DNA of 64,000 nucleotides from Ginglymostoma cirratum (taxonomy: Eukaryota), in the NCBI GenBank assembly GCA_024137785.1, contig JAHRHZ010000062.1:42935933-42999932 (forward strand), in the 5' to 3' direction. The number at the start of each line of letters is the position of its first letter. Position 1 is the first letter of the stretch. The notes beneath the pieces were generated by a model, which saw nothing but the letters and a program-made list of their open reading frames with translations, made no database searches and was not told the DNA's origin. Position numbers and translations under genes: made by a program. This document shows positions 3,691 to 57,994 of the stretch, piece by piece.

Positions 3691-4081
3691 AATTCAACTA
3701 CTCAGGGAACATTAGTTAATTTATTATTGCTGAGCTCAGACAATAATGGCTTTGTTGCATTCACTTGGGAAAAACATTGGAGGAATGAAGGGTAATAGAG
3801 AATGAAACTTGGAAATTTATTAAAGCACTGCATAAAGAGAAAAGACTAGGCTCTGGTGTTAGGCTGTGTGACACATGGATTGAGCCTGGGAATACTTTGG
3901 TTGTTTATGAAAGGCTGTATATAAATGAAAATCCTTCTCCATTCTCAGAGTTGCAATTATTCTCTTTCTGTCTCACCATCTCTATCACAGGAGACTTTGC
4001 ATAGTATTATCTCTATCCCAGATGGGTATATGTTGGAATCATGTTTTTTTTTTCACAGTTTAGTATTTTGTGTATCTGCAG

Positions 4082-4156
4082 GTGCTGATTTGTTTTGCTG
4101 TCCTGTTCTGTGGAGTGGTACAGATGATGTACTGGAAATCTACTTATAAGCATCTG
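4082..4156 (+). CDS. TSPAN32: TSPAN32 coding exon (likely exon 4; TM3): VLICFAVLFCGVVQMMYWKSTYKHL
   Basis: ctgcag| acceptor, |gtgagt donor, 75 nt, phase 0/0. Aligns without gaps to recalled human TSPAN32 GFLCFSLAFCAQVQVVFWRLHSPTQ. A 75-nt TM3 exon is typical of CD81/CD9-type tetraspanins. Confidence 0.85.
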
Positions 4157-5244
4157 GTGAGTCATATTCCAAACCTGGACTCAGTTACATTTATTTATGT
4201 TAATATGACTTGTAACTGACTGGAGAAATGACAGATTGTGCTTGTTACAGCGAACAGGTAACACTGGGAATGGTAGTGCTTCTTTTAAATGGTCAGCGCA
4301 GTTTTGTTCGCCTCCATTAATGCAGAATTGGTCATAATGTGGCCATGGTCAGCAATAAATTAGGCATTGCACTCAGATGTTATGCTCGCGAAGTAAGACT
4401 GCCACACATAGTCCAGTGAAAGGTGCTCAAGAAAATAAACAGTATGTTTTACTCCCAGGGAATTTTAAATTTTAACCCAGAAGAATGGATGGGATTTAGT
4501 TGGTTGGAAAGTAAGAACTTTATATTAAAAAAAACCCCTCAAAACTAAATGCACCTCAAACACTCTAGAGGGGAAAATAGGTGCAGGCACCCAATATGCC
4601 AATAGGTGATGGGTCCCTTATTAAAATATTTTAGTAAAGTAACATTCCTCAAATCTTTATCTCTGTTTCAGCTTTAATACTGACCAATCTGGTTTCCCAG
4701 CATTGGGAACCCTAGCAGCTGTGGGGAAGTAACTGCTGTGTGGAACGAATTAGTGAATTTTCGGCACTACTTGTGGGGTAGAAGAGTGTTAACCTGCCCA
4801 GTATATGGACTCATTCTCCCCGTGATTCAATTCCTCTCCCAGCGTCCTCCACAGTCTGTAATCTCCTTCTGGCTTTCTGCTCCGTGATATCCCCAAACTT
4901 TACTTTTCTCTTCCCTCGTTCTCTGTGGTCCTCTCCCCTCTTCTGTGATCCCTGCTGACTCTTGAATGCTTTCCCATTCAGAGGCTTTCGAACACAATGG
5001 CAGGCAGTAGCAGGGCCGTGTGTGGGGTCCTGAGTCTGGGACTTGTCTCCTCTGCTTTCTTTTTACTTCTGCTTTTTCTTCTATTCTCCTTCCTCATTCT
5101 TCTTTTCCTTGAAGCCTTTTATGGCATGTTAAATCAGCAGCATCAGCACAGCAGCGAGAGTGGGCTAATCGCGGAATGGCAACAGCCTCCCAGTGGTCAG
5201 AGACAGCGGCAGCAGACACCATCCCTCCTGGCGATTGGAGGTGG

Positions 5245-5410
5245 CAGTGGCAGCAAGGGGGCCCCGCCTGGTGTTCGGGGATGGTAGGAGCAGCAANNNN
5301 NNNNNNTGGTGTTCGGGGATGGTAGGAGCAGCAAGGGGGCCCCGCCTGGTGTTTGGGTCCAGTAGTGGCAGCAAGGGAGTCCTCCTGGTGTTCGGGGACG
5401 GTAGTGGTGA
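5245..5410. repeat. ~40-bp GC-rich minisatellite with 10-N gap (5297-5306)
   Basis: Unit gcagcaagggggccccgcctggtgttcggggatggtagga, about 4 visible copies. Confidence 0.85.
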
Positions 5411-5989
5411 CCAGATATTGGAGGTACCAGCATCTGTGGCAGCAAGAACACAGCTCCTCCTGGTGATCATAGGCTGACCGAGACTCCCGGCTGTGACAAG
5501 GTCCGTGAGCCTGCATTGGTGGGTCCCAAACACCTTTAGGGAGATAAGGCTTAGATTTTAATATCTGGATTTTTTTTTTATCTTTTTGTTTTCTTTATTG
5601 CAGCCTGGTGCCGCAGGCTGACCTGCCTGACAGCTGTGGAGCCTCTCAAGCTGCTGGCTGCGAGCAGGAAGTGGAATCCAGAACGATTTCCTGCGGCTCT
5701 CTTAACAGCTCCAGAGGAAAGCATGAGCATCAGGCTTTCCTGATACAGCAGAAAGTGTGAACAGGGATGAGCTAAAGACTTCAAACTAGTAAGACAGAGA
5801 GATCTACGAGGAATGGGACAAGCCTAATGATAAATGAAACAGGAAGGCAGAACACAGGACAGACTATATTAAGGAATTACATAATTGGCTAGAGCACATT
5901 TAAAAGATTAAACATATAATTAATAATAAAGTGGCTTATTAAATAAAATTGAACTGCCTGCACAGCAATTTCACACATTATCCATAACA

Positions 5990-7200
5990 CAACAGGGGAA
6001 CCAGAGCCACTTATAAGAAATTTGGAACCAGATTTAGTTGGGATTACTGAGGCATGACTTCAAAAAAATCAGGACTAGGAATTAAACATTGCAGGGCATA
6101 ATATATTCAGCTGAGATTGCCTAGGAATAAAGGAGGTGGTGTAGTTAACCTTATAATGATCTCACAGAAAGTGACGACCATGAGTAAGACTGAAAAAGAA
6201 TCTATGTGGATAGAGACAAAAGATGATGGATTGATCACACCTATAATGGTAACCTACAAAACACTCATCAGTAGAAAGTAGGTGGAGGAAGAAATATTTA
6301 AATATATTAAGGAACCTGTAGACTTTTGGGTCCATACTATAAAGAATAAAAGCATGGCAGAGACCAGGGTAATGGATCATAGAAAAGTCGATTTGGGTTG
6401 CTGACTGGGAATAGGATTTTGGGAAAATAAAACGCACAATAATATTTGCTAACAATAACATAGAATGCTAAAGGGAAATGTTTAACGTGATGTTCAGTGG
6501 AATTCAGGAAAATCATATTTTGCTGAAAAGCAGTAGTAAACTATAACGTAATGAGAAACCATGGATGAATGAAGACATAACAGAAAAATTGAAGATAAGG
6601 AAAGCATACACCGAGTACATGGACAGCAGGGAACTTATAAGAGAGAATAAGGAGCAATTAGGAAATCAGTCAAAGAAGAATTAGGAATGCAAAGAGGAAA
6701 TATGAAATGAAGTTGTCGAGAAACATAAAGCAAATTGTAAAATCCTGTACAGGCAGATAAATAAAAGTAGGACAGTTAAGATTGAAAAAAAAATATACTA
6801 GTCAAACTAAAAGAGGAATAAAGTGTTTAATGACCTAATAGAGGCCTTTAAAATTATGAAAGGAGGGTTTTGATAGAATGCATATGGAAAGAATGTTTTC
6901 TCTTTGTTAAAGAGTATAACTGGAGGCCAACAATATCGGATGGTCACCAAGAAATCCAGTAGAACGTTTAGAAGAAACTTGTTTATCCAACGAGTGCGGA
7001 GAATGTAGAACTTGCAACCACTGAATGTCGTTGAAGTCAATTGTACAAGTGCATTTAATGGGAAGCTGAACAAGCACATGAGGGAGAAGGAAATAGAGGG
7101 TTATAATGATAGATTTAGATAAGGAAGGATGGGAAGAAGCTTGTGTGGACCATTATCGCCAGTCTGGACTGATTGGGTTGAATAGGTTGTTTCTACATGG
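5990..7200 (+). mobile_element. Degenerate, internally deleted CR1-type LINE
   Basis: Endonuclease-like remnant (PDLVGITEA*L...NIAG...KGGGV, ~6028-6145) and a CR1-type 3' end (gacctaatagaggcctttaaaattatgaaagg..., ~6832-7190). Confidence 0.7.
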
Positions 7201-7261
7201 AGAAAAAAATTACCACGAGTTATCTCTAGAAGGAGGTAGTTAAAAGAATAGAAAAGTGTTC

Positions 7262-9836
7262 TGCATAACATCTCGCCAGCATATTAATTTTGGAAACCCC
7301 TGGATAACCCTGGGGGAGTTCAGCCAGTATCTGGCAGTGACCTTTGCTCGGGACAATCACCCTCACTCCCCATAATAATATGCCTCGACTGTGATCCAGT
7401 CCCTCTGGGTCCTAAAATCAGGTTGTGATGGCCCTTTGTTTTCTCCCATCACCACTAGCTGCTTCAAGTTTTGCCAGGACCGGATCTTTCTGTGTCCAAA
7501 GTCTGATATTGTCAGCTGTGACTGGAAGTGTGTCCAGAAAATTTAAAATCATTATGGTCTCTTCCAGTGGCAGTACCACCAGCAGTATATCTGCCAGTGG
7601 GAGATGGCTCAATGCATCGGTGTTTGCTGATTGGCCTCCCAGAGAGTGTTCTGACTTGTAACTATACATACTTAGTATTAGAGCCCACTGCTCAATTTGG
7701 TCTGAAGTTATGGGCGGCACTGCCTTATCCTCTTTAAGTAGACCTGGTAGAGGTTTGTAGTCCATTATTATTACAAAGTTACATCCATAAAGGTATTGGT
7801 GGAACACCCTGACTCCAAATATGTTCTGCCAAACCTTCCTTCTCTAGCTGGACATATTTATGCTCTGCATTAGCCAAAACCTTGGGTGCATACGCTATTA
7901 GGCATTCCTCTTCATTGGCCATCATGAGTTAATACTACCCCAATGCCATGCAGGGAGGCATCACATGTCGATACGAGATCTCATTTGGGATCATAGTGTG
8001 CCAACACCTTAGAGGATGATATCTGTTCCTTCACTTCCCTGAAAGCTGTGGCTTGGCTGCACGACCATTTCCAAAGCAGACCCTTTGTCAACAGTTGATG
8101 CAAAGATTCCAGGATGGAGGCAAGGTTATGTAGGAACTTTCCACAATAATTCATCAGCCAAGGAAAGACCTAAGCTCCAGTATGAACATGGGAGCCAGGG
8201 CACCTTTGATCACTCTCACTTTATCCTTCAACGGGTGTAACCTGGTCTTGTCGACTCTGTAGAGTCGATCACTTGGGGTGCCTAGAACACACTTTTTTAC
8301 CTTCTTAGGCATAAGGCAGCCTGGGACAACTGTCTAAGGACTATGTCCAAGTTCTTTAAGTACTCCTTATTGGTCTTCCCTGTTATTAGTACGTCATCTA
8401 GATAAATGGCAACCTAGGATGACCTTGCAAAATGTTCTCCATCGTCCACTGAAAAATTGCACAGCCTGACATTGCTCTAAATGACAGTCTCATATACTGG
8501 TACAAATGCTTATGTGAATTAATTGTACCATACTTCTGGTTGCAAGTAAGCATGGCTCATGTCTAGCTTCGTGAACAACAGCTCCCCTGCCAGCTTTGCG
8601 TATAAATCCTCTACGCGAGGGATTGGGTATTTATCCAGCTGCCAAAAGCGGTTTACCGTTTGTTTAAATTCCCCACAAAGGCAAACCAACCCATTGGACT
8701 CCAAAATCGATATGATTTGTGCTGCCCATTCCATAACTGGTTTGATGATTCTTTCACTTTCCAGCCTTCTGATGTCTGCCTCTATTTAATGGCACTGGAC
8801 GGGCCTTGCAGAATCTTGGGATTGCTTCCTGGTCCACATGCAAGGTGGCCTGGGCTCCTTTGATGCTCCTTAGACCTCCTTGGAAGACTTCTGGGTATTT
8901 AATTAGGACTTCACAAAATCAGCCATTTTCAAATCGAAAAATGTTGAGCTAATCTCTCAACTAACTTCACGCCAACAGGCCAGGCCTTTTACTACAATCA
9001 ATCAGTGGTAAGTGAACCAGCTGCTCCTCGTGAGAAACTGGAACTGAAGTTATACCCTTAATCAGTAAAGGTTCCCCGTTATAGCTTCTCAGTCTAGCCA
9101 AGGTCTTGCACAAACTTAAGGGGTTGGACTCCAGAGCACATTTTGTTAAAGCCTGGTTCTGCAATCACTGATACAGCTGCGCTGGTATCAACCTCCATTA
9201 GAACCAGAAGACTATTTAACCAGACTTTTATTTTGATTGGTTCCAATTTGGATGTTGCTAAGCAATTTAGCTGTTCTAAACCAGATGTAGGTGGACTTTC
9301 CAGGGCGTGCACTGTCCTGGAATACCCTGCAACCTAGTCAGAGTGCCTCTTTGAAGTATAGTTGGGCTTCAGCTAGTAGGATCTTTTGCATAGTTGCATC
9401 TTAATCCTACAAGCCAACTGGTCTCTGAGCATCTCATTAAGGAGTAAACCAAAGTCACATGCTTCTGCCAATAGCTTAACCTCTCAAAATCTCGATATGG
9501 ATTTCCGTGGTTCTTGAATTGCCATGACAGACAAATTAGAGGAGGCTTGGGGTCATAATATTCCCTAACTCAATCCAACAATTCTTGAAAGGTTTTAGTA
9601 TCTGGTGTCTCAGGGAAAGTCAGACTCGTAATAACCATAAAAGCTGCAGGTCCACAAGCTCTCAGGGGAATTACTTGTTGCTTTTCATCTGCCCCAGTGT
9701 CCTTTGCCCAGTAAAGATAATGAATTCTTTCCACATACCGGGCCCTGTCTTTGACAAATAACGGCATAAAGCCAGAAATACTCAAACATGAGTTGCAAGC
9801 GAGTTACTTCAGGAACATACTTTACTTTCGTCACCA
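7262..9836 (-). mobile_element. Decayed Ty3/Gypsy LTR retrotransposon internal region (gag-protease-RT-RNaseH, start of integrase), 3'-truncated
   Basis: Gag-like YVERI...KTFQELL (9570-9785); protease MEVDTSAAVSVI; RT DKYPIPRVEDLYAKLAG..FTKLDMSHAYLQ and AIYLDDVLITG (~8378-8410); RNaseH MDYKPL...QWALIL...NTDALSHLP; LLWGVRVIVP...YPGVSKINMLAR at ~7270-7380. Many frameshifts and stops. Confidence 0.92.
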
Positions 9837-15800: not shown

Positions 15801-15940
15801 TTTCCAGGGAAGGGAGGGGGAGGAGAGGACAGGGAAGAAATATTAACAAAACCAAGTACAGCTATATTTTTTAAATGTTCATGTTATTGCCAAACAAGTC
15901 TGTGTGGTGGCTAACATTTGAATACAATTGATCTCACCAG

Positions 15941-16042
15941 GTCGAGAGTGCAGTGAAGGACGTGTATGATTTTCTATATGATGATTTCATGAGAAACAGT
16001 TCCATTAATTCAAAACAGGATTTGATAGCCATTCACTCAACT
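15941..16042 (+). CDS. TSPAN32: TSPAN32 coding exon (likely exon 5; start of large extracellular loop): VESAVKDVYDFLYDDFMRNSSINSKQDLIAIHST
   Basis: caccag| acceptor, |gtaagt donor, 102 nt, phase 0/0. Gap-free match to recalled human VEDAMLDTYDLVYEQAMKGTSHVRRQELAAIQDV. Confidence 0.9.
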
Positions 16043-16382
16043 GTAAGTACTGGCATAAGCTGTTTCTACTGTCACATCAGATGTTTTAGAGATAGTGACT
16101 GGAAATTTTAAAACTTAAATATTGCAGAAATCTGACATGAAGACTTGCATTTATACTGCATCTTTGATGCAGTCAACTATCCCAAAGACCTTCTCAGTAC
16201 TATTATCAAACAAAATTTGGCACAAAGTTACGTGAGGAGATTCAAGGACAGATGACTAAAAGAGGCAAATTTTAGGGGGGAGCCAGAGTAGAGAACTGGG
16301 AAGACTTAGTGAAGGAATTCTAGAATGCTGTACCTCAGCAAGTGGAAGAATTAAAATCAGAAAAGCCCAGGAGGCCAAAATT

Positions 16383-17450: not shown

Positions 17451-18427
17451 TCCACAACAGAGAAAAAGGCCAAAGATACAGCTGAGTATGAAGTGAAAGT
17501 GTTCCAAGTACCCATCGGATCTCTAAATGGTTCAGTTCAGCCAGTGTGCCCATCCAGTTCCTAATGCAAGAAGAAACAGAGAGAGAAATGCAGAAAACCA
17601 CACAGAATTTTATAGAAAGTGAAATGGATGATTGAGAAATGGGGTTAAGCTGGAATTTGAAATATTGTCGACAAAATCTTAAAATATTTATGTTTTAAAA
17701 ATGTATCATCTTGGAGAAATTTGACATTCTACAAATAAAGAAGTGACCTTCTAAGGCCAGAGATGTTTTATAAGTATTTATACAGTTACTACATTGTTAA
17801 AGACCAGTTACACCTCATGCAACATGGTGTAACTAATACAGAAGGAATATCGGTACAAAAAGGTAACTTTTCTTCAATTCAGTGATTTACTTGGTTGCCA
17901 TCAGTGGGCAGGGTGTTTCAATACTACACCCTGTGTGGAACATTGCTGTCATCTCTAGAGACTTCACTGCACATGTGCAGATTCCAGAGGTTGCATCACC
18001 ACTGCAAAATGTGAGCCATTTCCTTTCAGAAGGTTAAGGCCTTAAAGGACAGCTCAGAATAAAGTCCTGGTCAGTGCTGATTTAGCAAAGGCTTCAGTGC
18101 ATATGTTGAAATTGGATTCACCCTGCCAACACACATTGTTTAGGCTCATGCGTAGTAGCTACTGGTGACAAGCAGAATACTAATGCAGAATGCTGACACA
18201 GCATCAGAAATTGCCAATAATTCAAAAACAGGGAACATGAGTTGAGGAATTCCTGGCACCTGTGCCCCATTAAATATCATTTCTTCCAAGTTACAACACA
18301 CATGAATAAATCTTGCACAAGGAACTGGGCACACTGGCTGAACTGAACCATTTAGAGATCCAATGGGTACTTGGAATACTTTCACCTCATACTCAGCTGT
18401 ATCTTTGGCCATTTTCTCTGTTGTGGA
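17451..18427. repeat. Long inverted repeat: ~110-bp arms (17451-17562 and 18320-18427) with ~760-bp spacer
   Basis: tccacaacagagaaaaaggccaaagatacagctgagtatgaagtgaaag...cagccagtgtgccc is the reverse complement of 18320-18427 with about 4 mismatches and a 4-nt indel. Confidence 0.92.
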
Positions 18428-20320: not shown

Positions 20321-20426
20321 CTGAGTTCTTAGGAAGGGTCACTGGACCCAAAACATTAACTTTAATTTCTCTCCACAGATGCTGCCAGATCTGCTGAGCT
20401 TTTCCAGCAATTTCTGTTTTTGTTTG
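20321..20426 (+). mobile_element. Penelope-derived short element with decayed hammerhead
   Basis: agtt-CTTAGGA-a-GGGTC-actg-GACCC-AAAA-ca-TT-aact at 20324-20361. Flanked by an imperfect direct repeat, tgactttgagag / tgacttttgagag. Confidence 0.75.
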
Positions 20427-21078: not shown

Positions 21079-21250
21079 AGATAACAGTGTGGACCTTTGA
21101 GGAACAGCGGGCCAGGAAAATTTTCTGAAGAAGAGTCCCAACCTGAAAGGTCAACTTTCCTGCTCCTTTGATGCTGCCTGGCCTGCTGTGTTCCTCCAGG
21201 TTCACGCTGTGTTATCTCAGACTCCAGCATCTGCAGTTCTTACCATCTCC
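21079..21250 (+). mobile_element. Penelope 3'-end insertion with short inverted leader, 14-bp TSD
   Basis: TSD tcataaatct(t/c)aat at 21065-21078 and 21251-21264. Contains CTGAAGA...GAAAggTC with a degraded stem II. Tail matches 51191-51320. Confidence 0.8.
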
Positions 21251-23674: not shown

Positions 23675-23751
23675 GTCACTGGACTCAAAATATTAACTCT
23701 GTTTTTCTCTCCACAGATGCTGCTGAGTTTCTCCAGCACTTTCTGTTTTTG
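23675..23751 (+). mobile_element. Penelope-derived short element, decayed
   Basis: gtcactggactcaaaatattaactctgtttttctctccacagatgctg. Similar copies at ~33948-34035, ~38862-38955 and ~46355-46510. Confidence 0.65.
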
Positions 23752-33220: not shown

Positions 33221-35401
33221 GTGCATAAGTACAAGCTGTTTCTTTTCACATCATAGAAGCAGGCAAAGAAAGATAGTGATGCTAAGGAAGGAGGAAGAAT
33301 AGGTTGAATATGATCAGAGTGAAAAACTGAAAAGGCCGTTCAGTGGTAGCTGTTCACAGGATCTACTAAGACGATTCTTGCCGACCAAAACATGGCTTCT
33401 CGATGCTTTTGTGTATTTGCAGGAGCCACAGGATGACTATTTTACACTTTAAAAGTTTCTGATTTATTCATTGAAAGTCACAGCTCACAGAAATTGCTTT
33501 TCTTCAGACTTAAAGTGATTTTTACCGCAGGAAACAAAGCTTGCAGAAATCTGATGGGTTCTCATTATCTTGTTCACAAACCAAAACTATTCAACCACCT
33601 GGGAGCCAATCATATAGTTGTTGATAGTCAGAGGCTTTTGGCATTGATAAATCATCACTGGTCCACAGACAAACAGCTATGTGTTGCTGGCTGAAGCTCC
33701 ATTTGTAGATAGTACTTGGCTCCAGTGGGTCTGCAAACCATCTACGACTGTTTGAACCAACAGTTCTGTAAATAGTACATTCAAACAATATCAGAATACT
33801 TGCTTTACAAAGTGCAGTCATCCTTCAACAATATTTTTAATCCATTTCAGTCCATAAACAAAACTACAGAAAAATAGAAACATACAGTGTTCACAACCTT
33901 TAGCACAAAAACATCCTGTCTATTAGCCATTCGAAAGAAGTGTAATATTGGACCTGAAATATTATCTCTGTTCCTCTATCCACAAATGTTGCTAGACCTG
34001 CTGATTTTGTTTGGCATTTTCTGTTTTTGCTTCATGCAGCCTCTACAGTAATTGCTTTAATTTCAGTCCCTCAAGATCTGTTACATTTATGCCCATTTAG
34101 ATTGGTTCTTTAGTTCCTTGACTGAATAGTTCAGTTCATTAGAAAACAGGAGTTCAATAACACAAAGTGTAAACAATGTAGAAGATGTCAGGCATTGTGC
34201 ACATTCAATCACAGAAAAGAAGTTATGACCAGCAGAGGTGCTGTTGGTTTAGCGGATTCCAAGTAAACTCAGCTGGAAACAAGCCCTTGATTACTTCAAA
34301 GAAACAGAAGACTGTCAAGGTATCAGAGAAGAAGATATCCTACAGGACTATTGAAGACATGAATTTAAGGAACTCGTGTGAAGGAGTAAGTGAGCTCAGT
34401 TAGTAGCCTGTTTAAGGATCTCAGGAAGAGACATTAACTAAAGGAAACGGCATTGAATGAATGCAGAATTTTGTATCTGGATAAAGGAATTTTTGGGTAA
34501 AACACTTGAATCTTTCTTTCAGAATTTTGTAATGATTCAAATAGTTATTGTACAGTTTAACATAGAATGTGTTTATTTTTCTTGTTGTAATTAACTTTCA
34601 TGTTTCCTTGTCAAAATTATATTGGCAACCTCTTGTGAATATGGTCAGTGACTGATCACTCAGGTAGGCAAATAGCAAACATAAGCTTTATAGCCTATCA
34701 AGTCAGATCCCACCCATGGATCTTATTTGTCCAGCATTACCATCAGAGGGATCATAACACCAATTCCAACAGAATAATTGGCATCAGTGAAACCACCAAA
34801 AGTTTTACAGTCCCACCTTTATACGGTGAAGAACAGTGAGGATGTTGCCATTATACTGCTAACCATACGCCTGACCAGCTTTTCATAACTCTTATCTCAA
34901 CCAGCTGCTCTTGTGCTGTTGTGGCATATTTGATTATGGCTGTAAATCCTCCTATAATTTTCCTACTTTATCTCCTGTGAATATGTTGAACATGGAAACA
35001 GCTACCTTCATGTTTTCAGAAATTATTTCTTTGGTAATGGTATTATATCTTACCTGCTATAGCAATGTCTCTAGCTGAGAAATTTTACTCATGACATTTT
35101 ATATTAGCATACCTAAAATCTTCCTTAGCATGTTTGGCATTCTTACTCTTATTTACTCCTCATTTGGATCCATTTATTGTACTATTCCAATATTTTTCAT
35201 TGGTGATATCTTATTTCTTTCTTGTTGTTTTATCCTTCCTCACCTTGCAATGTGTCTTAAACACACCCAGTGAGGACACTTCTTCCAACTTTGTTCAGCT
35301 AATGATCATTCCTATTAATATTCATTTCAATGTCCCAGGAATGTAATTCTTTCTCTTCTGCAAATGATTCCAACTGTTAACATCATTATCCTACATGAAT
35401 T

Positions 35402-36495: not shown

Positions 36496-36675
36496 GACAA
36501 CAAGCATGGGGCTGGATGAACACAGCAGGTCAAGCAGCATCATAGGAGCAGGAAAACTTTTTCCTGAAGTTTTCAGTTTTCCTGCTCCTATGATGATGCT
36601 GCTTGACCTGCTGTGTTCATCCAGCCCCATGCTTGTTATCTCGGATTCTCCAGCATCTGCAGTACCTTTTATCTC
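36496..36675. mobile_element. Young fold-back Penelope-derived insertion with 14-bp TSD
   Basis: Arms 36499-36558 and 36575-36637 are exact reverse complements apart from an extra gat. Perfect TSD aaataagattattc at 36482-36495 and 36676-36689. Confidence 0.92.
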
Positions 36676-36959
36676 AAATAAGATTATTCCTACAGATTGT
36701 GCTTCGAAGTGGCAGAGTAATTAAGAACAAAATCAGTGATAGAAGTCACAACTGATATATGAGGAACATATTGTACATGGGATTAGTTTCAAGTAACGGG
36801 AGCATTTGGGAAATTCCAGGACCATTTTAATCATAGTGTTTGTAAGCAATCGGCACAACATTTTAATTTCCGGTGACACAGACTCAAAACCAATAACTAC
36901 TCGAATGAACCATTTGCTCATCTGCCAACCCCACAATGAACCTGCCCTCTTAACATAGA

Positions 36960-37379: not shown

Positions 37380-37445
37380 ATGGGGGTGGAAGGTTGTATG
37401 AAATGTATCAAGTACTTGCTGTTCGTCTTCAATTTCCTTTTTTGG
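37380..37445 (+). CDS. CD81: CD81 tetraspanin exon 1: MGVEGCMKCIKYLLFVFNFLFW
   Basis: Kozak-like gcaATGG, TGG|gtaagt donor, 66 nt. Near-identical to the human CD81 N-terminus MGVEGCTKCIKYLLFVFNFVFW. Confidence 0.97.
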
Positions 37446-46700: not shown

Positions 46701-46831
46701 AACTGAAAGAACTGTGGATGCTGTAAATCAGGAACAAAAACAGAAATTGCTGGCAAAGCTCAGCAGGTCTGGCAGCATCTGTGAAGAAAAATCAGTTAAT
46801 GTTTCATGTCCAGTAACCCTTAATTAGAACT
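46701..46831 (-). mobile_element. Penelope-derived short element, decayed hammerhead
   Basis: Minus strand reads agtt-ctaatta-agggttactggacat-GAAA-ca-tt-aact. Confidence 0.7.
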
Positions 46832-49036: not shown

Positions 49037-49151
49037 CTTGCAGGAGGAGTGGTTCTGGGTGTGGCTCTTTGGCTCAGACATGACCCTAAGACGACGAGCG
49101 TGTTAGAGACCCACTTTGCAGATCAAACAGCTCCCAGCACCTTTTTTATAG
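49037..49151 (+). CDS. CD81: CD81 exon 2: LAGGVVLGVALWLRHDPKTTSVLETHFADQTAPSTFFI(G)
   Basis: ttttctttctccag| acceptor, G|gtaagc donor, 115 nt, phase 0/1. Matches human LAGGVILGVALWLRHDPQTTNLLYLELGDKPAPNTFYVG. Confidence 0.97.
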
Positions 49152-51190: not shown

Positions 51191-51991
51191 AGAGAGGTAA
51201 AAGGTACTGCAGATGCTGGAGAATCCGAGATAACAAGGTGTGGGGCTGGATGAACACAGCAGGCCAAGCAGCATCATAGGAGCAGGAAAGCTTGACGTTT
51301 CGGGCCTAGACCCTTCATCAGAAATGGGGGAGGGAAGAGGGTTCTGAAATAAATAGGGAGAGAGGGGGAGATGGATAGAGGAGAGGATAGTTGGAGAGGA
51401 GGCAGACAAGTCCGAGGTGGGGATGGAGCCAGTAAAGGTGAGTGTGGGTGGGGGTGGAGGTAGGGAGGGGAGAGGTCAGTCCAGGGAGGGAGGACGGACA
51501 GGTCAAGGGGGCGGGATGAGGTTAGTAGGTAGGAGATGGGGTGGGGCTTGAGGTGGGAGGAGGGGATAGGTGAGAGGAGAGACAGGTTAGGGAGGCGGGG
51601 ACGAGCTGGGCTGGTTTTGGGATGCAGCTGGGGGAAGGGAGATTTTGCAGCTTGTGAAATCCACATTGATACCATTGGGCTGCAGGGTTCCCAGGCTGAA
51701 TATGATTTGCTGTTCCTGCAGCCTTCGGGTGGCATCATTGTGGCATTGCAGGAGGCCCAGGATGGACATGTCGTCTGAGGAATGGGAGGGGGAGTTGAAA
51801 TGGTTCGCGACTGGGAGGTGCAGTTGTTTGTTGTGAACCGAGCGCAGGTGTTCTGCAAAGCGGTCCCCAAGCCTCCGCTTGGTTTCCCCGATGTAGAGGA
51901 GGCCACAACAGGTACAGCGGATGCAGTATACCACATTGGCAGATGTGCAGGTGAACATCTGCTTGATGTCAAGTCGTCTTGGGGCCTGGGA
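51191..51991 (-). mobile_element. 5'-truncated Penelope-like retroelement with intact GIY-YIG endonuclease C-terminus and 3' pLTR
   Basis: FTCTSANVVYCIRCTCCGLLYIGETKRRLGDRFAEH...VANHFN...EQQIIFSLGTLQPNGIN (ORF 51587-52066) is a canonical PLE GIY-YIG domain. CpGs are retained, so the copy is young. Confidence 0.95.
51291..51324 (-). ncRNA. Minimal type I hammerhead ribozyme motif
   Basis: Minus strand reads UUU-CUGAUGA-A-GGGU(CUAG)GCCC-GAAA-CG-UC-AAG, with both conserved core boxes, stem II and a palindromic ACGU stem III. Predicted cleavage after GUC (51294/51293). Confidence 0.8.
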
Positions 51992-52594
51992 TTGGGAAGA
52001 GAGCTGATTCTTTAAAAAAAAAACAACAAACAAACTTGGCTTCGTTGACAAGGACCTGGAGTACAAGTGCAGGCAAATTAAGCTAAGCTATGTAAGATGC
52101 AAGTCAGGGCCCAACTAGAGTACTGCAAACAGTTTCGGGTGCCACGCTTCAGTAAGGCTGTGGATGTATTGACAAAAGTGCCCAGGGTTATGCACCAGAA
52201 TGGTTCCAGGGATGAGAAACTTAAATTCTGAAGTTGAATTGGAGGAGTGAGGATTGAAGGGAAGGCAGAATGGAGATTTACAAAATGATGTCTGGAGAAA
52301 AATAAGTGAGGCAAAACTATTCTTGCTCACAAGGAATGAGAACCAGAGAGCACTGTTTAAAATCTCTTGAAGAAACTTGGGAGGAATTGTTAGAATTTTT
52401 GATTATATTGTGCTTATGCTGGGTGTTGGTTGTGATTCCTTTTATTCTCCTTTACTGCTCAGGACCCTAGTTAGGAAATCTGGTCAGATAAGTGGGACAG
52501 AGCTAGTGCTGAAGCTTGTGAAACCAGAATGTGCTTAGCTGTGTGTACCATTATGATAAGGCTTTATTTTTAAATTCACTTGGGTTTCACTGGC

Positions 52595-53170
52595 TGCTAG
52601 AATATATTGCTTTGACCCTTGAGGGAAGGTAGTGGTGAGCTGCCACTTTGAACTGCTGCAGGAAGACTCTCAATGCCATTAGGGAGGGAATTCCAGGGTT
52701 TTGACCCAGCAAAAAATGAAGAATGTTGAATTATTTCCAAGTCAGGATGGGGAGTGGCGTGGAGGGAAACTCCCAGGTGATGGTGTTCCCACATACCTGT
52801 TGCCCTTGTCCTTCTCGTGGAAGCAGTTATGAGTTTGGAAAATTCTACAAGGATCTTTGAATTTCTGCAGTGTTTTTTTTTGTAGATAGTACACATTGTT
52901 GCTACTGAGTGCATTCGAATATTTGTGGATGTGGTGCCAGTTGGATGGGTTGCTTCATGCTGGATGGTGTGAAGCTTCTTTATTGTTGTTGGAGCTGGAC
53001 TCATCCAGGCTAGTGGAGTGTATTTCATTACACTCTTGATTTGTGCTTGTGGATGGTGGACAGGCTTCGGGAGTCAGATGTGATGAGTTGCTTGCTGTAG
53101 TATTCCTAGTTTCTGAACTCTCTTGTACCCACTGTATTTTAATGGTGAGTCCAGTTCAGTTTCTGGTTGA
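52595..53170 (-). mobile_element. LINE (CR1/L2 clade) 3' fragment
   Basis: MKYTPLAWMSPAPTTIKKLHTIQ...WNSLP, the C-terminal region of a non-LTR RT ORF. Confidence 0.75.
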
Positions 53171-56100: not shown

Positions 56101-56599
56101 CTTTTATTTAACTTGGATCAGTCTCCTCAGGGTAAACTGAGATGTCCTCAGCTGTAAATCTGGTTTAGATTTCTCATGAAACTCAACTGGCCTATTCAGA
56201 GGAACTGGTCAATATCAACTTAAGGTGCAGTCTGGATGGTTCAGTCAAATTTTAGTAAGGTTTTATAATTCGTTCATTCAATTACCTTTTAAAGATAAGA
56301 ATGCACTGTTAGTCTTTTGTTCACTTTCTCACATTTAATTTTTTCCCCCTTCCCTGACTCTCAGTAGATATTATTCTGGGAATATGTGTGGTCCTTTGGT
56401 ATTTGCCCAGTTGACTATTTTTGAAGTGTATCTGTCGACATGGACTCTTGCTGGGCTGCTTGACTGAGGGTGGGGTGGTGGGAAGTAGAGAAAATTTGTT
56501 TTAGAGGTAAAAGGTACTGCAGATGCTGGAGAATCCGAGATAACGAGCATGGGGCTGGATGAACACAGCAGGTCAAGCAGCATCATAGGAGCAGGAAAA

Positions 56600-56632
56600 C
56601 TTGACGTTTCGGGCCTAAACCCTTCATCAGAA
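56600..56632 (-). ncRNA. Minimal type I hammerhead ribozyme motif
   Basis: Minus strand reads UU-CUGAUGA-A-GGGU(UUAG)GCCC-GAAA-CG-UC-AAG. Confidence 0.78.
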
Positions 56633-56646
56633 GGGTTTAGGCCCGA

Positions 56647-57046
56647 NNNNNNNNNNNNNNNNNNNNNNNNNNNNNNNNNNNNNNNNNNNNNNNNNNNNNN
56701 NNNNNNNNNNNNNNNNNNNNNNNNNNNNNNNNNNNNNNNNNNNNNNNNNNNNNNNNNNNNNNNNNNNNNNNNNNNNNNNNNNNNNNNNNNNNNNNNNNNN
56801 NNNNNNNNNNNNNNNNNNNNNNNNNNNNNNNNNNNNNNNNNNNNNNNNNNNNNNNNNNNNNNNNNNNNNNNNNNNNNNNNNNNNNNNNNNNNNNNNNNNN
56901 NNNNNNNNNNNNNNNNNNNNNNNNNNNNNNNNNNNNNNNNNNNNNNNNNNNNNNNNNNNNNNNNNNNNNNNNNNNNNNNNNNNNNNNNNNNNNNNNNNNN
57001 NNNNNNNNNNNNNNNNNNNNNNNNNNNNNNNNNNNNNNNNNNNNNN
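56647..57046. other. Assembly gap (400 N)
   Basis: Run of N. Confidence 1.
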
Positions 57047-57994
57047 TTGACCTGCTGTGTTCATCCAGCCCCATGCTTGTTATCTGAGAAAATTTGTTTT
57101 CACTGGTTCCTGGCAATTTAAGTTTTGCCAATAATCTCATGTTAAAAATGTCAAATGTCTGTTACAACAGTGGTTCTCAAATCAGGGTCTGTAGACTTCC
57201 CAGGACCTTGTGAAACAATGTTGAAAACTGTAAACTGATAAATGGTTGCTTTGTGCTCTGTAGAGTAAACTGCCTCATCAAGGAGTGTTATTGTCGGTGC
57301 TGAAGAAGTGAATTCTGGTCAAGAGGAAAGAGTTGGTCTCTAGTGGGAGCCCCTAAGCAATAGCCTTGCAACAAACAGGCATTGTCTAGTTTGCATGGAG
57401 CAAGATGGTGGGATGATGCACTTGTTTGGTGAAGGTTGTCATATGAGCATGGTGGCACCAATTTAAGTGAATGCGTCATAACTGGAATGCTTTATTCATC
57501 AGCCTTCCCCTGGTTCCTGTCTCAGCAAACATTTTACAGCTGGCAAAAACCCACGATGGTTGAAATCATTATATGCTAGATCTGAACTTAACAAAAATCT
57601 GAGGACCTACACAAGATCCGCAAATATATCTCCCCCATCAAGGAATGGGAAATGCAGGCAGTCACTAATGAATCTCTTGTGATGAATAACATGGGACTAG
57701 CCCTTCCTAAACAGACTTGGGATAAACCAGGGCCCTGGCACAGCTAACCTCTGCTTCTTGGGCCTCAGTATGAACTCCTTCCCTGCTTGAGAGGCAGAAG
57801 TAATGTATGTTATCAAGGGGTGACCCCTCCTATGCACGAAGCAGTGAACTTAACACCTTGACAAGGCAATCGCTTGGCTCCAGTGATTTTTGTAGTCACC
57901 AATTAACTATAATAAAGGGACATCGGTCCTTGCACTTTGGTATTAGACTTATCCCACGTGCATATATACTTGTGAAACTTTTCTGCAGGTGTAA

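Follow-up and report, generated by a model that had tools for sequence, protein, structure and literature searches.

Minimal hammerhead ribozymes (min-HHRs) are located in the pLTRs of metazoan Penelope-like elements, as described in the text of Cervera and De la Pena (2014, PMC4209133), which reports that they cleave weakly as dimers. Cleavage in the presence of protein has also been published (text of PMC11167929). The text of Craig et al. (2021, PMC8557442), which covers the Neptune-clade EN+ elements, states that the role of the hammerhead in Penelope-like elements is unclear. In the text of Frangieh et al. (2024, PMC11167929), devoted to the Poseidon element of Anolis carolinensis (PAc), the uncut RNA is the template, and insertion in vitro proceeds without the need for cleavage. 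Internal or pLTR promoters are given for other Penelope elements in the texts of PMC2377424 and PMC3846280. The preprint text of Li et al. (2026, 10.64898/2026.07.22.740005) reports only Neptune and Poseidon in vertebrates, and non-LTR retrozymes in the sole chondrichthyan sampled. In full-length L1 and SVA insertions, an untemplated 5′ G is read as a copied cap (text of PMC4859970).

The window, a stretch of 64,000 nucleotides from Ginglymostoma cirratum, contains an element of this kind on its minus strand. With a probability of about 0.8, this window copy is an RT-less, 5′-truncated member of a very high-copy Neptune-type Penelope-like family, in which the hammerhead is likely an idle passenger and whose members would replicate by the mechanism proposed below. 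The locus itself is ordinary, a dead copy of a known class in which the motif is real; the less ordinary part, worth following, is the pattern of copy ends across the family. Positions relative to the ribozyme are counted from the predicted cut (0 = window 51293), so that −28 is C3 at 51321, −32 is 51325 and +100 is 51193. The features are listed in Table 1.

Table 1. Features of the window; positions are those of the whole stretch
Feature	Position	Strand	Basis
Neptune-type Penelope-like retroelement, 5′-truncated: endonuclease, 3′ pLTR and tail, no RT	51193..51996	-	alignments
GIY-YIG endonuclease frame; CIRC, YIGET, RFAEH, HF, E and N motifs; TAA 51589-51587	51587..51967	-	profile and motif comparison with L207
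3′ UTR, C/T-rich; upstream part of pLTR	51326..51586	-	sequence
5′-end pile-up of sister copies, −31 to −33; inferred start of element RNA, initiator-like CCATTTC	51324..51326	-	copy ends and counts
Minimal type I hammerhead, predicted: 3-bp helix I, CUGAUGA, extra A, 4-bp helix II, GAAA, loopless ACGU helix III, C17	51290..51325	-	sequence, fold, descriptor
Predicted self-cleavage site GUC^A	51293..51294	-	canonical hammerhead numbering
Optional 35-nt tail between preferred 3′ ends +65/66 (51228) and +99/100 (51193)	51193..51227	-	copy ends
Short, older member of this family with start at −31 and damaged core	21123..21237	+	copy alignment
Two young pLTR ends arranged head to head, only one of them with tail; arms start at 0/+1; no core	36496..36678	.	
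Young pLTR ends paired head to head across a gap of 400 N; minus arm with intact hammerhead at 56630	56501..57085	.	
Older sister pLTR family, seven pieces with worn cores	2039-2141, 2157-2222, 2873-2952, 20326-20409, 23681-23739, 33935-34004, 46711-46828		
CD81 exon 1, coding part	37380..37445	+	translation and position; no profile match
CD81 exon 2	49037..49151	+	matches CD81 residues 23-60, E 5e-12

The window copy is 804 bp long, from its 5′ limit at 51996, where the alignment to longer copies stops, to its 3′ limit at 51193. Its endonuclease matches the GIY-YIG profile (Pfam PF01541, E 8.8e-5, 23.2 bits against a cut-off of 22.6), and no solved relative of the open reading frame was found in PDB. 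The minus-strand frame is open from 52087 down to the TAA codon, and a deletion of 1–2 nt near 51970 takes the copy's initial codons out of frame. The RT, the linker and the start codon are all absent from the copy, no RT lies upstream of it, and no target-site duplication was found around it. Further upstream, degenerate minus-strand frames at 52597-53155 resemble the C-terminal end of a LINE RT; they have no Pfam match and are unrelated to the Penelope RT. The copy differs from the majority of its 30 best matches at 20 of 744 sites (2.7%), is 94% identical to the closest copy among the matches listed and is about 95% identical to the youngest subfamily. These values do not support the youth that the original prediction ascribed to it, and the copy is a passenger, not the autonomous partner proposed there. 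RNA depth is at most 1.5 in its unique flanks and reaches hundreds to thousands inside, because other copies contribute reads there.

The family to which this copy belongs was reconstructed from longer relatives. Its layout comprises the pLTR with the hammerhead, two preferred 3′ ends (+65 and +100), an ATG at +139, the RT, a Cys linker and the GIY-YIG endonuclease. In L207 the RT and endonuclease share one open frame of 886 aa (RVT_1 7e-7, GIY-YIG 6e-5) with the linker CNRRKCYTC, the CIRC...EH...HF (CCHH) motifs and ADKG. Two further copies, L230 and L233, carry the pLTR, the tail, the ATG 38 nt past the tail and an N-terminus that joins the L207 frame, and both are broken by frameshifts. Full-length copies with RT and GIY-YIG, for which the original prediction proposed a search, were recovered only in part: the two domains stand in one frame, but none of the 20 long loci fetched is a single intact full-length element. 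Inverted arms are also present among the copies. By its sequence, the family is an EN+ Penelope-like element with a pLTR on both sides of the ORF, an optional tail and inverted 5′-truncated copies, and it is of Neptune type by its linker, CCHH and DKG motifs.

Such an organization agrees with the Neptune clade as set out in the text of PMC8557442 in the RT, the CX2-5CxxC linker and the C-terminal GIY-YIG with CCHH, as well as in 5′ truncation, an inverted 5′ copy and a 30–40 bp tail at one end. Unlike that clade, as its text presents it, the family carries a long Ala/Thr/Pro repeat before the RT, and the junctions examined here display no microsatellite targeting; the placement is one by motifs. 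The repeat is of variable length in L207 and L218. As in PAc (text of PMC11167929), two internal RT start sites bound the tail, whereas PAc has no Cys linker and its ORF begins within the ribozyme; here the ATG is 139 nt beyond the cut site. A literature search that had most subscription journals outside its reach turned up no paper on this family.

The family is very abundant. Exact genome counts give 90,622 occurrences of a 31-nt body motif and at least 57,991 ribozyme cores, compared with vertebrate counts of 4,000–9,000 in the text of PMC4209133, which, like two of its supplements, names no shark. Extrapolation from a random sample of 100 stretches of 10 kb yields some 700,000 pieces; the estimate is rough, since 41 of the 100 stretches are masked and read as N. 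Among the top 30 protein matches, 28 comparable copies form a young subfamily with a median of 7 differences in 1,404 nt (minimum 0). Such near-identity indicates that one subfamily was very recently active, in agreement with the activity originally predicted.

The hammerhead follows the endonuclease frame on the same minus strand. Its elements, proposed as CUGAUGA-stem II-GAAA-CG-UC, were confirmed base by base: A51325 and UUU 51324-51322 (the 5′ strand of helix I), CUGAUGA 51321-51315, the extra A 51314, helix II GGGU/GCCC with loop CUAG (51313-51302), GAAA 51301-51298, CG, U 51295, C17 51294 and AAG 51293-51291. The loopless palindromic stem III (ACGU) was likewise confirmed, and helix I has only 3 bp. 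From the canonical numbering, the cut is predicted at 51294/51293. The parts of a minimal type I hammerhead (CUGANGA, GAAA and UH core, helices I and II, palindromic helix III) are all present, which supports the class assigned by the original prediction, a minimal type I hammerhead in the pLTR of a Penelope-like element. In comparison with the min-HHRs in the text of PMC4209133, the type I core, the loopless palindromic helix III, the extra base between 9 and 10.1, the G10.1-C11.1 pair, the predominance of solo copies and the occurrence of some opposite-strand pairs are shared. The helices are shorter, with 2–4 bp in helix I and 4 bp in helix II, versus 4–5 and 7–8 bp given there for Schistosoma.

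No Rfam hammerhead family matched at the locus, and the loose core pattern, used by itself, is close to chance (14 matches versus 7.3 expected). A structural descriptor including the helices found 41 matches in the 572 kb of the random sample plus window, versus 0–1 in each of five shuffles. The folding z-scores (−0.01 to −0.63) reveal no special stability, and the monomer adopts the hammerhead fold in silico with a probability of 1e-5.

The core is intact in 36 of 82 sampled copies, and the other 46 have lost the core or helix II; its CpG positions are mutated in 12–22% of the 82. The excess conservation of the CUGANGA/GAAA core across copies, on which the original prediction was staked, is not observed: non-CpG core positions are kept no better than neighbouring controls (12/574 versus 92/3444, p = 0.48). 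An earlier comparison gave p = 0.02, but it was biased because C3-A6 anchor the alignments, and the value of 0.48 was obtained without them. This test was misplaced, because inserted copies decay neutrally and constraint is visible only between subfamilies. Between lineages, changes occur at N7 (T or A), in loop II and at pair 10.4-11.4 (U-G in 62 and U-A in 14 of the 82 copies), and none affect the core. Classes in which helix I comprises 2, 3 and 4 contiguous pairs have mean divergences of 6.0, 4.3 and 2.4% (n = 24, 11 and 23), an age order that is significant between the oldest and the youngest class (p 2e-4) and not between neighbouring ones (p 0.10 and 0.18). The fourth pair uses A-32. 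Lineage changes that spare the core, together with the growth of helix I, suggest that the ribozyme is maintained by selection on the master RNA.

The copies of this family end at preferred positions. Among 92 matches in the random sample, 26 have their 3′ end at +65/66 and 40 at +99/100. For the scoring of 5′ ends, 10 matches beside gaps and 2 at edges were left out. The 5′ ends form a wall: 27 of 53 copies at risk end in −34..−28. Genome-wide exact counts agree, as the fraction of copies retained when three bases are added is 58.9% at −34..−32, compared with 90.3% at −37..−35 and 94.7% at −2..0. The wall is not the sole end, since 24 of 75 copies at risk have their end within the ribozyme (−27..−3; the bins overlap at a few positions). 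Neither is it a subfamily artefact, because wall copies are flanked by unique sequence or by inverted arms, and several show target duplications. No ends fall at −52, and a 3′ splice site at that position was for this reason rejected as the source of the wall. No paper on a 5′ wall at helix I was found in a search outside of which most subscription journals and figures fell; the text of PMC11167929 reports none, and its Fig. S2 could show one.

Three features of the wall are relevant to its origin. First, the initiator consensus is YYANWYY, and CCATTTC at −34..−28 fits it with the A at −32. Second, a run of at least four T's stands at the end of 22 of 39 short copies and of none of 59 long copies. 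Third, in copies without C at −34, A-32 is preceded by G in 2,452 cases, by A or T in 1,920 and by C in 3,771, so that G:(A+T) is 1.28 versus a background of 0.35. By hand count, the base preceding that G is itself G in only 13 of the first 100 matches listed. Hand-sorting of G-preceded starts (40 of the first 42 loci) assigned 12 to a neighbouring arm or target and 8 to a short end duplication; for 11 no neighbour was identified, and only 9 look untemplated. This extra G before the first templated base resembles that of L1 and SVA in the text of PMC4859970, although here it is found on run-off copies of 100–130 nt and is partly explained by microhomology. In nine composites (L223, L228, L229, L233, L234, L245, L246, L249 and L251), the piece starting at −31..−33 is preceded by another piece whose end lies in the 5′ UTR/ORF, between about +230 and +480 and in one case at +1,570, a pattern expected from template jumps after run-off. 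Direct repeats of the first 7–20 nt of the element at the 5′ junction of L260, L266, L273, L279, L281 and L289 resemble repeated re-copying of the template end.

The pile-up is likely the trace of run-off cDNA, copied from a capped and uncut RNA whose start lies at helix I. In the mechanism proposed from these sequences, the master RNA would be a capped transcript beginning at helix I. After the endonuclease cut, the RT would use an internal priming site at +100 or +65, as it does in vitro for the anole element, and would run off the 5′ end of the RNA after 100–130 nt. Integration straight after run-off would give the short pieces, and longer copies such as the window copy would arise when the RT jumps to the 3′ portion of an RNA. 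The copied RNA would be mostly uncut. The ribozyme would be kept for a step in the life of the master RNA, either 3′-end formation or 5′ shut-off, acting as a dimer or assisted by protein, and not to generate the template's 5′ end.

A wider reading is offered tentatively, as possible though not the more probable outcome. The several hundred thousand stubs may constitute a fossil map of the Penelope cycle, with an RNA capped at the first base of helix I, internal priming, a strong-stop cDNA as in retroviruses and an uncut template. Selection may then have lengthened helix I from 2 to 4 bp up to the first base of the RNA, and a terminal repeat of 32 nt, available for strand transfer, would result from cleavage in the downstream pLTR. 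With a young subfamily of near-identical copies and junctions countable in the tens of thousands, the family offers genome-scale evidence for an uncut template. The end pattern names one base as the RNA start, so the question is open to a single 5′-end experiment. A 5′-end mapping aimed at 51294/51293, as originally suggested, may miss the main end, which maps to the equivalent of 51325.

The same element could also produce the wall by RT stalling or a repair preference at the border between ATTT and the C-tract, without any RNA start at this position. We consider this unlikely, while leaving it appreciable weight. The wall does sit just before a long C-rich tract, and many junctions show microhomology; moreover, no pile of molecule starts was seen at the wall in RNA-seq (X23 and X24 runs). 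Such a signal may be missed, because host read-through swamps it: 83% of the X23 reads, dominated by other copies, run on into unlike sequence, and X24 provides few reads. A border effect sits poorly with the absence of ends inside the tract itself, where none of 26 copies end in the next 29 nt (−63..−35; p 1.6e-6 versus the wall), and with the extra T's and the excess of G at the end. It also sits poorly with an older sister family, in six examples of which the flanks likewise turn unrelated just before helix I.

This sister family has 46 matches in the random sample, and its copies also start just before helix I. Its core is CUGAGGA, with helix II GGGUC/GACCC, helix I GUU/AAC and U17 at GUU^AAC. 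It accounts for 7 of the 12 other related pieces in the window, and the remaining 5 (three insertions) belong to the present family. The more than 10 short elements of the original prediction are thus reached only with the two families pooled, and the proposed system of an autonomous retrotransposon with dependent short elements is not supported, as the pieces look like abortive insertions of the same element and members of the older family.

It would be quite doubtful to regard the short pieces as a separate non-autonomous family, retrozyme- or SINE-like, mobilised by the long element. They are abundant, share their start and have target duplications of 8–17 nt (6 found), and one class (AGCCTT), with 9 copies in the random sample, has 7 at the wall and none that is long. 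However, subfamily marks are common to short and long copies in the three main classes, and long copies with related marks exist (L129, L230). The ends form a continuous gradation and are found as arms of composite insertions, and only 36 of 82 copies keep an intact core. Non-LTR retrozymes also have type I hammerheads derived from the pLTRs of Penelope-like elements, but they are defined as tandem units in the preprint text (10.64898/2026.07.22.740005), whereas the pieces here are solo or head-to-head. No tandem hammerhead units were seen among the pieces in the window or the junction listings.

The head-to-head pieces raise the idea that the hammerhead cuts the template and that this cleavage determines where integrated copies begin. 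In the 36.5-kb pair the two arms begin at 0/+1, and 5 of 28 matches in the contig-1 pattern set begin at about 0..+5. In the random sample, only 2 of 77 ends lie near the cut site (−2..+4), and among core-bearing copies the retention across −2..0 is at the level of mutation. Ribozyme mutants of the anole element insert normally in vitro, and none of the RNA-seq reads for that element end at its cleavage site (text of PMC11167929). In the RNA-seq examined here, likewise, no read ends at the predicted cut. Cleavage as the source of the ends is therefore very unlikely. The arms of the 36.5-kb pair are separated by a 15-nt spacer, with a AAATAAGATTATTC duplication on both sides, and lie 700 bp upstream of the CD81 start codon. 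Gaps of 400 N stand between the arms of young head-to-head pairs in the window (56647-57046) and at many sampled loci, and are probably assembly failures at palindromes.

The element lies in intron 2 of CD81, antisense to the gene, as it is flanked by exon 2 and by the following exon, which is found about 23 kb beyond the window end and matches residues 62-92. The predicted location is thereby supported, and the intron extends past the window end. The CD81 pre-mRNA holds the reverse complement of the ribozyme, since the copy is antisense. That the copy functions at the locus, regulating CD81 by self-cleavage or antisense transcription, is scarcely credible. In its favour, the core is intact where 46 of 82 copies have lost core or helix II; against it, 44% are intact anyway, the orientation is antisense, the flank RNA depth is at most 1.5 and there is no excess conservation at copy level. 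Elsewhere in the window, an exon-like plus-strand frame at about 15911-16070 (VKDVYDFLYDDF...DLIAIHST) resembles another tetraspanin, perhaps TSPAN32. An inverted repeat of 121 bp, 92% identical, has its arms at 17451-17571 and 18311-18427, about 740 bp apart.
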